A stretch of DNA of 54,899 nucleotides from Verrucomicrobiota bacterium. Its GTDB lineage: Bacteria; Verrucomicrobiota; Verrucomicrobiia; Limisphaerales; CANJSG01. Position 1 is the first letter of the stretch, and the number at the start of each line of letters is the position of its first letter. The DNA lies in the NCBI GenBank assembly GCA_038209745.1, contig JBBQXJ010000026.1, positions 1 through 54,899 on the forward strand, given 5' to 3'. Below, piece after piece: positions 3,001-9,000 of the stretch. The position numbers are program-made.

Positions 3001-6000
3001 GACCTTGGCCGAGCAGCTGCAGAAAGGGCAGTTCCAGGCGGCCCGTGAAACCCTCGACAAGATGTCCGAGCAGCTGAAAAAGGGGCAGATCAGCCAGGAC
3101 GAGATGGAGAAGATGCTGGCCGAGGTGGCCAAGGCCGCGAAACCCGGCGACAAGTTCGGCAAGGTTGGCGAGATGTTGAAAAAAGCCGCGTCCGAGATGA
3201 AGGCCGGCAACAAGGGCGAAGGCGGCAAACAGCTCGCCGCCGCGTCCGAGGAGCTCAAGCGCCTGCTTGACCAGATGGGCGACATGGACGCGTTGGAAGC
3301 CAGCCTCGATGCTTTGAGCCGGGCCCAGATGGCCCTCGCCACCGGCAAGAGTTGGGGCCAGTGCAACAACCCCGGAAAAGGACGCCCGAAGATGGGCAAA
3401 GGCGGAAAAGCCGGACCCGGAGTGGGAACCTGGGAACCCGAGGGCGGCTACCTCTACTATCCCGAAATGTCGGAGCTCTATGACTACAGCGACATGCAGC
3501 GCCCCGATATGGAAGGGAAGGGCCTGACCGATCGCGGTGGCGGCGAACTGGCCGCCGGCCTGAATCCCACCAAATTGAACGGCCAGATGAGTCCCGGTGG
3601 CCCGATGCCCAGCATCACGCTCAAGGGCGTCAGCATCAAAGGCACGAGCAAGTTGAAAGTGCAGGAAGCCGTGACCGCCGCCCAGAGCGAGGCCCGCGCC
3701 GCCATCAGCGACGAAAAGGTGCCCCGCGCTTATCGCGGTGCCGTCCGCGACTACTTCGACGATCTGAAGGAGTAGACGCGACGTCCATTGCTGACGAATC
3801 GAGCCCGCGATTGGCGCGGGCTCTTTTCTTGCGCTCTACTGCCGGAGCGCTTCGCCCGTCCGGCTCTTGGAGACGGACATGATTTCTTCCGGGGTTCCTT
3901 CCGCCACCACCCGGCCACCCTCATCGCCGGCGTCGGGGCCGAGATCGATCACCCAATCGGCGGAACGGATGACGTCGAGGTTGTGCTCGACGACCAGCAC
4001 CGAGTGGCCGGCGTCGACGATCCGCTGGAAAACACCGATCAGGATTCGCACGTCCTCGAAGTGCAGACCCGTCGTTGGTTCGTCGAAGAGGAACAAGGTC
4101 GGTTTGTCGGACTTGCTGGCACGGGACTCGAAGTCCGCGAGATGCCGGACGAGCTTGAGCCGTTGGCTTTCGCCGCCGGACAGGGTGTTGATCGGCTGAC
4201 CCAGGCGAAGGTAGCCGAGGCCGATGTCCTGGAGCAGGGCGAAACTCTTGCGGGCGCGGAGGACGGACTTCGCAGCCGGCAATCCGTCGAGGAAGCCGAT
4301 GGCGTTGTCCACGGTGGCGTCGAGCAGGTCGGCGATGGACCATTCGAGCGCGGAGGGATTCGCGATGCGGGATTCCTGATGCCCGATGGAGGACAGTTTC
4401 ACCTCCAGGATGTGGCCTCGATAACGGCGGCCGTCGCAGTCGGGGCAGCGGACGAAGACGTCGCTGAGGAACTGCATCTCGATCTTCTCGAAGCCCGCGC
4501 CGCGGCAGCGTTCGCACTGGCCCTGAGCCGAGTTGAAGCTGAAGGCGCTGGCGTTCAAGCCGCGCTGCTGGGCCAGATCCGTCTGGGCGAAGAGTTCGCG
4601 TAGGTCTTCGAAGGCACCGATGTAGACGGCGGGATTGGAGCGCGGGGTTCGGCCGAGAGCCGTTTGATCGACGAGAACGACACGACCCAGTGCTTCGTGG
4701 CCGCTCAAAGTCGCGCTGGTAACGAGAGAGTCCTTTTCCCCATCGGAGTCTTTTTCTTTGTCGTCGTCCGAGGTGGAAGCCGGGGCGTCTTCCTCGCGGC
4801 CGAGCCGTTCCTCCAACAGAGGCATCAGAATGTCGCGGATCAACGTGCTCTTGCCCGAGCCGCTGACGCCGCTGACGCAGACGAAGCTCTGGAGCGGAAT
4901 CTCGACGGTGACATCGTGAAGGTTGTGGCGAGTCGCGTGCGCCAAAGTCAGGCGCGGAACACCGGGCTTGCCGCTGATGGGGCGGTGCTTCGGCTGGGCG
5001 GCGGATTTGCGGCCGGAAAGGTAGTCGGCGGTGAGGGAGGCCGTAGGCCGGGCATCCGTGTCCGGCGAGTTGCCGTTTCCGACTTTGCGGGACTTGCCGG
5101 GCAGGGATGCCCGGCCTACGGGGCGCAACATTTCATCCAGCGTTCCTTGGAAGACCAGGTCGCCACCGGATTCGCCGTGGCCGGGTCCGAGATCGATGAT
5201 CTGGTCGGCCGCGCGCATGACGTTCGACTCGTGTTCCACGACGACGACGGTGTTGCCCTGATCGCGCAGGCGATGAAGGACCTTTACCAATCGATCCGTG
5301 TCGCGGGGATGGAGGCCGACGCTGGGTTCGTCGAGGACGAAGAGCGTATTGACCAAGCGGGAACCGAGACAGGAAGTGAGGTTCACGCGCGCCGTTTCGC
5401 CGCCGGACAAGGTGCGCGTGGCTCGATCAAGCGTGAGGTAGCCGAGCCCGACCTCGTCAAGATAGCCAAGGCGCGCGCTGACTTCCTGAAGGGCGAGGGC
5501 GAGCGGGTCGTTGGCGGAAGCGCGGTGCTGAGCGGCCAGTGCATCGACGAGACCCAGCGCGTCGCGGACGGGCAGCAGATAAAAGTCGGACAGCGTGATC
5601 TGCGATTTCTGATTTCTGATTTCTGATTTTCGAGCTGTCGTCTCCGGGGCTGCGTCACCCTGGGCAAGGGAGTCCGTTCGAATGTTTCCGCCAAACCCCT
5701 CACCGTGCCCTCTCCCCGTCCGACTGGGAGAGGGTGGCCGTAGGCCGGGTGAGGGCTTTTCAATCGGAATTCCAAAATCGGCAATCGGCAATCGGAACAA
5801 CAGTGCTTCCGGCTGGAACCGTTGGCCGTCGCAGGTCGGGCATTTCGTGTAGGCGCGATAACGGGAGAGGAGCACGCGAACGTGCATTTTGTAGGCCTTT
5901 GATTCGAGCCAGCGGAAGTAGCCCTTCACGCCATACCACGCGTTGGGCCATTCGTGTTCCTTGTCCTTGCCGTAGCCGGGATCGCCGTCGACGACCCAGC

Positions 6001-9000
6001 GCTGCCATTTCTCGGGCAGGTCTCGGAAGGGGACGTTCAGCGGACACTTGTTTCGACCCGCCTCGTTCAGCATGTCGTTCTGGCACTGTTTACCGGTCTC
6101 GGTCTGCCATGGTTTGACCGCGCCCTCGGCCAGCGTCTTGGAGCGGTCGGGAATGGCGAGGTCGTAGTCGATCGTGATGATCCGGCCAAAGCCCTTGCAC
6201 TCGGGGCAGGCTCCGACGGGATGGTTGAAGCTGAAGAGCGCGGCGGTGGGTTCGCGGTAGTCGAGGTCGCAAAGGGCGCAGTGGAACCGATTGCTGAAGA
6301 GGAGCGGCTTTTCCTTGTTTGCACCCATGAAACGCACGGACACTTTGCCGTGGCCGAAGTGGAAGGCCTGTTCGCAGGCTTCGGTGAAACGGGCGCGGCT
6401 GGAAGCGGCGAGCTTGATTCGGTCCTGGATGACATCGATGCCGCTGGAGTGATCCCGGATGCCGGATGCCGGATGCTCGACAAGGGCGGCGGCGTCCTCG
6501 ATGCGAACGGGTTGGCCGTCGATCAGCAGTCGTTGGAAACCCTGCTTGGCCACGAGGGCTAGCTGTTCGGCGACGGAAAGTTTTTCCGAGAGGGTGAGAT
6601 GGAAGGTGAGGAGCGCTTCACGGAGGCCGGAGGCCGGAGGCCGGATACCCGATCCCTGATCCCCGATCCCTGATGCCGGATCTCTCAGAGAGCTCGGCTG
6701 ATCCCGGAGCTCCATCGCCGCGTAGCGGCTGCTGCCTTCATCCGGCATCGGGTATCCGGCATCGGGTGTCGTTTTGGTCAGCTTCTCCCAGATCGTCTGC
6801 GGCGAATCCTTCCGCACCGGCTGTCCGCACTTCCGGCAATACAGCGTGCTGACGTGCGGCCACAGCACCTTCATGTAGTCGCAGATCTCCGTCATCGTGC
6901 CGACGGTGGAGCGGGTGGAGCGGACGGCGTTGCGCTGCTCGATGGCGATGGCCGGAGGGATGCCCTCGATGCTGTCCACGGCCGGCTTGTCCATCCGGTC
7001 GAAAAACTGGCGGGCATACGGCGAAAAGGTCTCCACATAGCGGCGCTGGCCCTCGGCGAAGAGCGTGTCGAAGGCGAGGGAGCTCTTGCCGGAACCGCTC
7101 AATCCCGTGACCACGATCAGCTTCCGGAAGGGAAGATCGAGGTCGAGATTCTTGAGGTTGTTCTGGCGGGCGCCGCGGATGCGGATGCACGCCGGCGCGG
7201 CCGGTTTCGACATTGGGGGCGAAAGCTAGGGGGCGATGCCGGGAGCGTCAACCGGCCGGTCTCCTGTAACGGATCGGGCGTATTCGGCGTTGTTAGTCGG
7301 AAGCGGTGACGTCGTTTTCCGATTGGAAACACGTCGGTTTGCATTCGCCGGTGAGTGCGGCCAATGTTCGGCGCTCCAAGCAGTTGAAACGTCGGGAAAT
7401 CACCATTGAAACGCACTTGTTCAGCCGAGTCGGGCAGAGGGTTCCAAGGTTCCAACGGGACCCGCACCATCCTCTTTCGCCGATTGAGTGGAATAAGCCA
7501 CCGGTCTGATCCGTCTCTCCAACCTCAGAGAATCTCCGCAACCAAAAGCTCCAATGAAAACCCTCAGTTCCTTCCTCGCCGTCGCCGCCACCCTGCTCCT
7601 CGCCGCCTCGCCGCTCCAAGCCCAGCAGCAGCGCAAGAGCCCGCATGAAACCGTCAGCCAGGTCGTGGACGGCGGCCGCGTCACCATCACCTACGGCAGC
7701 CCCTACATGAAGGGCCGAAAGATCTGGGGCGGTCTCGTGCCCTACGGCAAGGCCTGGCGCATGGGAGCCGATGAGGCGACTTCGCTGATCACCCAGAAGC
7801 CCCTCCTGTTCGGCGATACGACCATTCCGGCTGGCGCCTACACCCTCTATTTTGTCCCGAACGAAGACGGATCGGCCAAGCTCGCCTTCTGCAGCGTGCT
7901 CGGCGCCTGGGGCGTGCCCGTCGATGAGAAGAACGACGTGGCCCGCGTGGACGCCAAGAAGAGCGATTCCAACGGTGCGGCCGCGACCGAGCAGTTCACC
8001 GTGGCCATCGACAAGGGTTCGTCCGGCGGGGGAGTGATCAAGTTGATGTGGGAGAAGACCACCTACAGCATTCCGTTCACCGTGAAGAAGTGAGGTCCAC
8101 CCCTCACCCGGCCTGACGACCACCCAATCCCCATTGGGCGGGGGTTGGGCCGGGGCGAGGGGCTCCCGCAGCGCGTCCATCGTTTGTCCAGAGTTGAATG
8201 ATTCGTTCCGAAACCGTCTCCCCTACCTTCTCCCAACATGATTCCGAGATACCTTGGGGCCCGCTTGGCCCTTGCCTGTGGTTTGATCGCGGCCCTCGCC
8301 GGAACCGCCATTGCGGCCGACCTTGAATTTCCCTCGCCCAGCCCCGCCGCCACCGTGAAGCAAAAGGTCGGGCTGACCGACGTCGAGGTCGTCTATTCGC
8401 GACCCGGCGTGAAAGGGCGGAAGATCTTCGGCTCGATGATTCCCTACGGCGAGGTTTGGCGAACCGGCGCCAACGCCGCGACCCGCGTTTCCTTCAGCGC
8501 CGACGTGACGCTCGGCGGAGCCAAGCTGGCGGCCGGTTCCTACGAACTGTTCACCATCCCCGGCAAAACCGAGTGGACGATCGTCGTGCAAAAACTCCCT
8601 GAGAAGGCGTCGTGGGGCGCCTATGCCTACAAGCCCGAGAACGACACGGCTCGCTTCAAGTCCAAGCCGATGAAGACCGGTGCGCCGGTCGAGAGCTTCA
8701 CCATCGGATTCGGCGACCTGCACGATACCGGCGCCACGCTGTTCATAGAATGGGAACGGACCCGAGTGCCCGTGAAGCTGGAAGTCGACACCGTCGGGAT
8801 GCTGACTCCGAAGGTCAAGGAAGCCATCGCCTCGGGCGCACCGCAGACGTGGAACTTCTACTACGGCGCGGCATCCCTGCTCTTCAACAACGGGGGCGAT
8901 TCCCAACAGGCCCTGGCGTGGGTGGATGAATCGATCAAACTGCGCGCAGGCTATCCCGGTACCCTTTTGCTGAAGACCCGGCTTCTGGTGAAGCTCGGTC

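Follow-up and report, generated by a model that had tools for sequence, protein, structure and literature searches.

The tandem arrays of seven-base units that lie inside genes of this Verrucomicrobiota bacterium are probably gene-less arms of cassettes built around four-helix-bundle genes (PF05635), which are swapped in and out of tolerant protein loops and carried there as passengers. We assign this reading a probability of roughly 60%. Arrays and cassettes have in common their units, a left-then-right order, a genome-specific match and their co-occurrence across genomes.

Period-7 arrays are in excess in the genome

We searched the genome with TRF, retaining arrays with a score of at least 36 and at least 2.5 copies, and identified 60 arrays of period 7, compared to 3, 11 and 11 arrays of periods 5, 8 and 11, respectively, and to 60 of period 10. 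A census of exact runs (at least 14 matches) returned 26 runs of period 7 and only 2, 2 and 1 at periods 5, 8 and 11. The excess of period 7 over these periods, already claimed in a first-pass annotation of the same DNA, is thus real and not due to chance. After merging, 63 period-7 arrays remained, of which 41 are intragenic, 21 are intergenic and one lies at an edge, with GATGCCG/CGGCATC as the dominant family. The claim that arrays lie mostly within open reading frames is correct by count, while per Mb intergenic DNA is approximately 2.6 times denser (28 versus 11 arrays, on the gene calls made in this analysis, which cover 84% of the genome). All the genes mfd, uvrC, polA, mutL and recG, which had been reported to carry arrays, appear in the intragenic list of this genome, and the array of mutS is detectable in the tier of the more sensitive scan. 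Arrays also occur in the essential MetRS, IleRS, PheT, LeuRS and DnaE. The first-pass annotation contains neither the mirror-image pairing of arrays nor their link to four-helix-bundle cassettes.

Arrays and palindromes in a uvrA paralog

The window, which is the whole stretch of 54,899 nucleotides that was analyzed, hosts a UvrA-family gene with several arrays. Its features are, in window coordinates:

3836..7213, minus strand: intact UvrA-family gene, 1125 aa, non-canonical paralog
6735..6772, minus strand: left arm of pair 1, GATGCCG-type unit (coding strand), aa ~148-160, PDAGYPMPD
6617..6687, minus strand: right arm of pair 1, CATCCGG-type units, aa ~176-199, PASGIGDQGSGIRPPASG, mirroring the left arm
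6447..6482, minus strand: solo array of right type, aa ~244-256, HPASGIRDH
5761..5798, minus strand: left arm of pair 2, GATTGCC unit, aa ~472-485
5708..5755, strand not applicable: palindrome of the CCCTCTCCC...GGGAGAGGG type, between the arms of pair 2
5594..5638, minus strand: right arm of pair 2, AAATCAG unit, aa ~526-540, KSEIRNQKSQI
5043..5119, strand not applicable: inverted pair of GTAG-type REP-like palindromes, in frame, aa ~699-724
4355..4388, minus strand: solo array of right type, degenerate, aa ~942-953
25596..25659, plus strand: intergenic period-7 array, AAAGCAG/AAATCAG units

This paralog had been described as bearing four arrays; their presence stands, and their number is five according to TRF and six according to the more sensitive scan. 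The two other UvrA genes of the genome have no arrays. In four congeners the site of pair 2 (5594..5638) hosts another unit pair, and the GTAG-type pair at 5043..5119 is found in congeners and not in the other families aligned. By eye, the palindrome at 5708..5755 resembles those beside the DUF559 gene of this genome. The AlphaFold model of the 1125-aa protein, built from a 40-row alignment, has a mean pLDDT of 80 and falls below 50 at aa 151-195, 488-534, 701-723 and 808-830; the inserts with low pLDDT lie outside the folded core of the model. A model from the single sequence (pLDDT 34) was discarded.

As RNA, the two pairs fold modestly better than shuffled sequences (z -2.2 for pair 1 and -1.8 for pair 2). 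In the intragenic pairs, mismatches on the mRNA strand are A.C in 35 cases and G.U in 8 (P-value 4e-5), a direction that argues against a selected mRNA stem and led us to reject selection for hairpins.

Intragenic arrays share units and order with four-helix-bundle cassettes

We defined a cassette as a PF05635/TIGR02436 gene with a heptamer array on its left and a mirror-image array on its right; this is not a published family. By eye, all six PF05635 genes of this genome have mirror-image flanks of 7- or 8-mers, and in the one on contig C12 these flanks are the dominant GATGCCG...CCGGCAT pair. The six cassettes are situated among protein genes. When six genomes are considered, 29 of 34 PF05635 genes show an inverted flank match of at least 12, compared to 40 of 374 mismatched flank pairs.

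Intragenic arrays are often mirror-image pairs as well, and the pairs lying within 200 bp are in left-right order in seven cases out of seven. Their units are also those of the arms around PF05635 genes. Intragenic arrays match the arms of the same genome in 12-mers more than those of other genomes (P-value 0.003, permutation test), although only 25 of 88 arrays have such a match, and in this genome only 47 of 135 arrays share a 12-mer with the flanks of its own cassettes. Across 23 related families, which are kin and hence not independent, array load correlates with the number of PF05635 genes (Spearman rho 0.71, P-value 2e-4); arrays occur in 10 of the 16 genomes that have a PF05635 match and in none of the 7 that lack one. 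Genome G001 has arrays and no PF05635 match at E ≤ 1e-10, and genome G012 has seven matches and no arrays.

No ORF of the PF05635, GxxExxY, DUF559 or Y1 type lies inside any gene of the 11 gene families or the 80 mfd genes searched, and in the same set we found no full cassette at a site that is empty or holds only arms in relatives. Ordered blocks of variants common to different loci are as frequent as expected by chance (5 versus 5.4); by this measure, a 17-mer present both in an mfd arm and in one arm of the C12 cassette failed as a candidate for block copying between loci. The printed flanks of the four Y1_Tnp matches of this genome have no heptamer arms. The GTAG/CGTC tag is missing from the heptamer arms and is seen only in the separate pair at 5043-5119.

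Most arrays occupy variable loops

Most arrays (78 of 88) fall within loops that are already variable in array-free genomes, on which alone the loops were defined. Over 11 genes, loop content predicts array density (rho 0.61, P-value 0.046). In the array-rich set, heptamer arrays are missing from ValS and LigA despite their many variable columns, whereas MetRS is hot for arrays with few such columns. Genes with no Pfam match are under-represented among array genes (3 of 31, compared to 29 of 100 controls, P-value 0.03, with slightly different E cut-offs), which indicates that tolerance alone is insufficient. Besides loop content, a residual preference may play a part.

The same loop can host different units, as in UvrA, MetRS, MutL and Mfd. 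Among 80 mfd genes of Verrucomicrobiota, 67 have arrays, for a total of 245 arrays of 116 units in few shared regions. As had been claimed, arrays are in frame and are gained and lost between congeners: the Mfd array of this genome near aa 57, for example, is unlisted in the four congeners from which it had been reported missing. Within one genus, the whole pair at one site has been replaced by unrelated units.

Could these arrays simply arise and turn over in place by replication slippage under weak selection, with the cassette arms reflecting the same genome-specific bias? Slippage would fit arrays that are short and degenerate, the 21-nt steps by which one loop differs in length between congeners (159 versus 180 nt), the MetRS loop that stays at 33 nt while the purity of its array varies, the failure to detect block copying between loci, and the heptamer excess described for bacteria in the part of the source that was available (PMC4692102). 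We consider it unlikely, as it leaves unexplained the fixed order of mirror-image pairs, their replacement as a whole by unrelated units within a genus and the link between the presence of arrays and that of PF05635.

Arrays replace loop sequence at similar length instead of just adding to it. Such rewriting would also be expected from RNA-templated overwriting, in which the four-helix-bundle protein would assist a reverse transcriptase in the manner of Avd; PF05635 is a putative relative of the Avd protein of DGRs. Matches to PF00078 occur in genomes G010 and G023 only, with none in G000 (this genome), G017 and G020, all of them incomplete genomes, and we regard this mechanism as extremely improbable.

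Array orientation and sequence in coding DNA are biased. On the coding strand, arrays of right type outnumber those of left type (33 versus 13, P-value 0.005). The base that creates a Cys codon is retained in 2 of 16 in-frame cases, compared to 32 of 48 intergenic ones, and the base that creates TGA in 0 of 16 and 8 of 48, respectively.

The repair bias is restricted to few genes

Arrays had been described as concentrated in DNA repair and replication genes, with a binomial P-value of 1e-10. In this genome, repair genes account for 6 of 31 array genes and for 1 of 100 length-weighted controls, or 3 of 100 if ComM and XerC are counted as repair. At the gene level the bias holds with P-values between 0.0007 and 0.006; the previous figure counted arrays and not genes.

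As a class-wide rule, the concentration found no support when genes were fixed in advance. In five array-rich genomes of other families, arrays occur in 8 of 23 repair genes (dnaE, ligA, uvrB, priA, recN and one topoisomerase) and in 6 of 26 housekeeping controls (valS, carB, secA, metH, alaS and lon; P-value 0.53), and array density is 1.8 and 1.1 per 10 kb, respectively (P-value 0.33). Addition of the two other UvrA paralogs to the repair set gives 16 of 32, against the same 6 of 26 (P-value 0.056). Two further searches provided no real test, since that for the topA family returned one weak match in five genomes and that for polA found no gene in 14 of 30 genomes, among them all but one of the five array-rich genomes. 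In other families, the hot spots are the UvrA paralogs, Mfd, MutL and also MetRS. UvrA, Mfd and MutL have 19, 14 and 9 arrays per 10 kb, approximately 10-fold more than the 1-2 of other housekeeping genes, in array-rich genomes that are themselves defined by these arrays. The other two groups of UvrA paralogs have arrays in other families too. The repair bias is narrower than claimed and is produced by UvrA paralogs, Mfd and MutL.

A unit of seven bases shifts the reading frame when it is gained or lost, and arrays are densest in repair genes. Such a gain or loss might switch mutL, mutS, uvrA or mfd off and produce transient mutators, with selection maintaining the arrays. Repeat-mediated switching of mutL in Salmonella offers a precedent (PMC2955026), and a similar speculation has been advanced for REPs (Di Nocera et al., PMC3733652), as far as the excerpts of both papers go. 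We judge such a contingency switch very unlikely. The frame is intact in 77 of 80 mfd genes. The other three have a break, in one case within conserved sequence, and no break is demonstrably a change of unit length. Strain contigs from four runs list substitutions in arrays and no indel, although contigs drop rare variants. Neither the mfd genes nor these contigs, in which rare subpopulations are invisible, revealed frameshifted ON/OFF alleles differing in unit number. Moreover, most arrays are degenerate, and the essential genes listed above have them as well.

Alternatively, each four-helix-bundle protein may bind its own heptamer, and the arrays in repair genes may be putative binding sites or deliberate deposits that tune or subvert repair. 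The genome-specific unit match, the 10-fold excess and the arrays in the other UvrA paralogs are in favor of targeting. We find it quite unlikely given that units are freely exchanged at one site, that the mismatches argue against selection of an mRNA stem and that the pre-set repair genes are not enriched. The same low probability applies to a stronger version, in which these proteins would recognize their own heptamer and drive copy-and-overwrite of UvrA, Mfd and MutL loops in many lineages, with a targeted bias towards transcription-coupled and mismatch repair. If true, targeting of repair genes would serve either to regulate repair or to subvert enzymes that would otherwise remove the repeats, and it would provide a function for the very large PF05635 family and an origin for bacterial heptamer repeats. 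The arrays look like tolerated passengers and not like a switch for DNA repair as a whole.

A passenger model for the arrays

We propose that arms or empty arm pairs of cassettes are copied into new sites, as shared units and order suggest, and that they would survive in coding DNA after passing three filters. Only loops in which change was already tolerated would serve as sites, the length would have to change by a net multiple of three, and the peptide would have to be harmless, which would favor the right arm (HPASGIR-like) and disfavor left-arm variants with Cys or TGA. Tolerant loops would be refilled again and again, and hence the units at one site would differ between lineages. No other long-resident cytoplasmic enzyme that was tested offers as much tolerant loop sequence as UvrA paralogs, Mfd and the MutL linker, which may be why these gather most arrays.

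To our knowledge, neither the heptamer excess of bacteria nor the role of four-helix-bundle proteins has been explained so far, and our data tie the two quantitatively in one order. Among titles and abstract openings, with few subscription papers covered, we found no link of heptamer arrays to PF05635 or to UvrA and Mfd loops, and a search joining the four-helix-bundle protein with GxxExxY, of similarly limited coverage, returned no match. The cassette with its matching units and the fixed protein loops that are independently refilled are defined objects for tests. Array peptides in alignments of UvrA, Mfd and MutL should not be read as adaptive insertions by default.

Comparison with known systems

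A repair-gene bias of intragenic repeats was already published in 2013 for GTAG/CGTC REPs, which were reported, without a test, in genes of DNA synthesis and repair (Di Nocera, De Gregorio and Rocco, PMC3733652); here it is narrowed to few loop-rich genes. The excerpts of that study describe a bias towards UvrABCD, Pol I and tRNA synthetases whose cause is left open, and REPs in both uvrA genes of the verrucomicrobium O. terrae. As with those REPs, the repeats described here are small and translated in frame, and the gene at 3836..7213 has a GTAG-type pair too. They differ in their unit, which is a tandem heptamer array, in having a PF05635 gene as partner in place of the RAYT transposase of the REPtron, and in the more than 100 units that alternate in the same loops.

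Families of heptamer repeats are known in bacteria, including the STRR of cyanobacteria. Others are GGGAATC in Xanthomonas and Nostoc (PMC4692102), TAACTGA in Beggiatoaceae (PMC4679880) and the four-heptamer elements of Geobacter metallireducens, with intragenic copies noted (PMC2700814). In the available portions of their main texts, these families resemble our arrays in period, in their approximately four units and in their frequent inverted pairs; they are treated as mostly intergenic, with G-quadruplex or regulatory roles proposed, and are not linked to four-helix-bundle genes or to recurrent protein loops.

The intervening sequence of 23S rRNA (Coxiella S23p, Leptospira), in the part of the source available, has an ORF of the four-helix-bundle family and terminal inverted repeats that can form a stem (PMC4990558). 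Cassettes likewise have such an ORF flanked by inverted repeats, but they lie between protein genes, and their arms occur without the ORF in coding loops. Since the host mRNA must be translated, these arms are not expected to be excised, unlike the rRNA element, which is cut out by RNase III.

MITEs have conserved terminal inverted repeats, a conserved body and a target-site duplication; the arms described here are inverted, and the middles between them are unrelated from site to site. Rickettsia palindromic elements, one family of conserved palindromes, are repeat DNA tolerated in frame within conserved proteins. They are mentioned alongside REPs in the excerpts of PMC3733652. Our arrays share with them the in-frame repeat DNA and differ in being exchangeable tandem heptamers.

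Period-7 arrays in the genome and in the window

The window is contig C26 of the source genome (G000; 4.58 Mb in 140 contigs, 63% GC), whose Mfd relatives are labelled Verrucomicrobiota, several of them Limisphaerales. It hosts the following features:

3836-7213, minus strand: intact UvrA-family gene of 1125 aa
13451-13479, 13782-13808 and 15716-15742: period-10 CACAGATGGA/ATCTGTGTCC arrays, of the type bracketing a GxxExxY gene on contig C32
27109-27353: intergenic tandem array with a degenerate 21/42-bp repeat, about 245 bp long

Throughout G000 we counted 60 arrays of period 7, as compared to 3, 11 and 11 of periods 5, 8 and 11. 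A scan for four copies returned 135 arrays of period 7, 16 of period 8 and 4 of period 11, with a noisy 286 for period 5. The excess of period 7 over these other periods, as reported in the first-pass annotation, is therefore clear. The arrays had also been described as mostly intragenic, which is true of their number (41 of 63 merged arrays, based on our own gene calls) and not of their density, which is greater between genes.

The window gene is one of three UvrA genes in G000, which fall into separate clades in a quick tree; of the three, only the gene on contig C109 scores above the canonical NF001503 cut-off. In some relatives the window paralog and a second UvrA unit lie together in an open frame of approximately 2000 aa. 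Two UvrA units share one frame of approximately 1650-2200 aa in G017, G019, G025 and probably G031 (L023, L025, L013 and contig C7 of G019), and they are adjacent genes in several other genomes. Several arrays do lie in the window gene, although we counted six rather than the four previously assigned to it, together with two kinds of palindrome. In the predicted structure, built with a 40-row alignment, the core is confident and pLDDT drops under 50 at residues 151-195, 488-534, 701-723 and 808-830; the two short solo arrays fall outside these segments.

Mirror-image pairs and four-helix-bundle cassettes

The arrays often form mirror-image pairs, a feature absent from the first-pass annotation. 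In the GAT/ATC family, opposite-type neighbors follow the left-then-right order in 7 of 7 cases less than 200 bp apart and in 10 of 11 within 600 bp. The same arrangement brackets all six genes of G000 that encode a four-helix bundle (PF05635/TIGR02436), a family that we take to be kin to the Avd protein of DGRs. At one of them, on contig C12, the arms consist of the dominant unit. By eye, GxxExxY genes of G000 have arms of 9/10-mers, and a DUF559 gene and two Y1 genes have palindromes; this fits the period-10 class, which is mostly intergenic and also paired. A Y1_Tnp domain lies inside a 1405-aa ORF on contig C11 (L037:3258-7472), and related sequence occurs in the alaS loci of G020 (L525), between two alaS match pieces, and of G008 (L526).

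We took 30 of the 44 PF05635 loci of five other genomes and read 29. Inverted matches between flanks were found for 29 of 34 PF05635 genes and for 40 of 374 mismatched flank pairs. Intragenic arrays resemble the arms of their own genome more than those of other genomes (25 of 88 share a 12-mer with them; P-value = 0.003), with the exception of G023, whose arrays are closer to the arms of G008. Over 23 families, the number of PF05635 genes correlates with the array load in 11 genes (rho = 0.71), and arrays are found in 10 of the 16 genomes with a PF05635 match as compared to none of the 7 without. Two genomes are counter-examples: G001 has arrays and no PF05635 match at 1e-10, and G012 has seven matches, some with stops, and no arrays. 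We searched the compared genes and 80 mfd genes for the cargo ORF of four cassette families and found none.

Arrays and cassette arms share vocabulary and order, and co-occur; these points are shown, as are the placement in loops and the frame filters described below. Our preferred reading, to which we assign a probability of about 60%, is that the arrays are arms of cassettes lacking the gene, which would reach new sites and last where protein loops tolerate them. We infer the direction of copying, the enzyme and the neutrality of the inserts. Local slippage probably keeps and resizes the arrays; as their sole cause it is unlikely, since it leaves pairs and replacement unexplained.

Array hot spots and the repair class

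The first-pass annotation had further proposed a concentration of arrays in DNA repair and replication genes. We set the rule for this class (COG class L) prior to annotation, with the earlier gene list already known. In G000, 6 of 31 array genes belong to it (Mfd, UvrC, UvrA, PolA, MutL and RecG, leaving out TatD). Among 100 length-weighted controls from the 592 genes of the same regions there is one (UvrB), or three including ComM and XerC (P-value 7e-4 to 6e-3). A noisier tier from a sensitive scan, with 38 of 40 further genes annotated (a 12,000-aa ORF and one control-set gene left out), contains four class L genes and three tRNA synthetases. An open frame of approximately 12,200 codons spans C43:1-36681.

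In other families (G007-G029), arrays occur in window-type uvrA (6 of 15 genomes), mfd (8/22), mutL (5/22), metG (6/21) and dnaE (4/20), and are absent from polA (0/9), ligA (0/20), uvrB (0/23), valS (0/20), carB (0/18) and secA (0/21). These counts exclude paralog loci (L027, L262, L264, L265), a duplicate (L205), second pieces (L375-378) and G030-G040; some loci are incomplete, and the uvrA row of G017 extends into a fused second unit. A second gene set, chosen in advance, was scored for arrays in five array-rich genomes, and gave priA 3/5 (one array possibly 5' of the true start), recN 3/5 and a topoisomerase 0/1 for the repair genes, and metH 2/5, alaS 3/5 and lon 1/5 (doubtful) for the comparison genes. 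When all genes chosen in advance are pooled, repair genes do not differ significantly from the others (8/23 versus 6/26, P-value = 0.53; 1.8 versus 1.1 arrays per 10 kb, P-value = 0.33). UvrA, Mfd, MutL and MetRS reach 19, 14, 9 and 6 arrays per 10 kb in the same five genomes, which were picked for bearing those arrays. Neither of the other two UvrA paralogs has arrays in G000, nor does the canonical one in three congeners; in other families 11 of 15 copies of these two paralogs have them.

The hot spots are therefore genuine and replicated, and belong to individual genes, not to the class. The bias holds at the gene level in G000 and is not supported as a class-wide rule. A regulon or targeting role of the arrays is quite improbable.

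Some of the genes surveyed vary in other ways. The models for bacterial topA and polA were unmatched at the cut-off used in 4 of 5 genomes (G008, G010, G020, G023) and 14 of 30 genomes, respectively, which may be search artefacts or true losses. In many genomes of the order carB is split into two genes on different contigs (C49:10654-12171 and C4:51614-53341 in G000; L206-L235), and some have an additional full-length copy. A lineage-specific UvrB insert, 27-57 aa long and located near position 403-407, occurs in 8 of 29 genomes (L170-L177); several of these inserts consist of REP-like palindromes.

Loop content, turnover and selection

We defined loops from array-free genomes alone. Of 88 arrays, 78 lie in columns already variable in sequence and length, a category covering 2-29% of the alignments. 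Array density can be predicted from loop content (rho = 0.61, P-value = 0.046), which is highest in UvrA, Mfd and MutL (111-185 aa per 1000). The repair claim narrows to a hot spot comprising UvrA, Mfd and MutL, for which loop content is a partial explanation. There are exceptions: ValS loops hold REP-like palindromes and larger inserts, the variable parts of LigA are clade-specific blocks, and MetRS is hot with a single small loop. Unrelated in-frame inserts of approximately 190-230 aa occur in ValS of G009 (two; L193) and G029 (one; L194). Genes without a Pfam hit are scarcer among array genes than controls (3/31 versus 29/100), which suggests that conserved flanks or long residence may also matter.

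Arrays do come and go between congeners, as previously noted. In the UvrA loop at residues ~472-540, G000 has a palindrome within a GATTGCC/AAATCAG pair (192 nt), and the arms in four congeners are of GAAGGCC or AATGACG type (60-90 nt). The MetRS loop measures 33 nt in six genus members; in G008, G009, G010, G020, G023 and G027 it contains other units and is similar in length. Among the best 80 of 573 Mfd relatives, a sample that may over-represent array-bearing genes because the query itself has arrays, 67 contain arrays (245 arrays, 116 units, clustered in few regions), with control periods 5, 8 and 11 counted 19, 3 and 0 times. The reading frame is intact in 77 of these 80 genes, in line with the frame preservation originally described, and a mutator switch via arrays appears highly improbable. 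In strain contigs (4 of 24 listed runs), window arrays have substitutions at 5774, 6632, 6641 and 6683, and no indels are listed.

On the coding strand right-type arms predominate, and variants forming Cys or TGA are avoided. Mismatches on the mRNA strand of 22 intragenic pairs are A.C in 35 cases and G.U in 8, as compared to 58 and 41 in cassette flanks, where the bias is not significant. Together, these data suggest that the peptide is under weak selection and that an RNA stem is not selected for. Overwriting of loops driven by RT, the remaining alternative to gene-less cassette arms, deserves hardly any credence.

Relation to known repeats

The contribution here is that the cassette link and the repair bias were both tested across genomes. 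STRR is a cyanobacterial heptamer repeat family. Bacterial heptamer families (PMC4692102, PMC4679880, PMC2700814), an rRNA intervening sequence with an ORF (PMC4990558) and repeat-mediated mutL switching (PMC2955026) have been described. The array phenomenon is real and relates to intragenic repeats of a kind already known. According to one study, intragenic REPs are biased toward genes for DNA synthesis and repair, among them both uvrA genes of O. terrae (PMC3733652).
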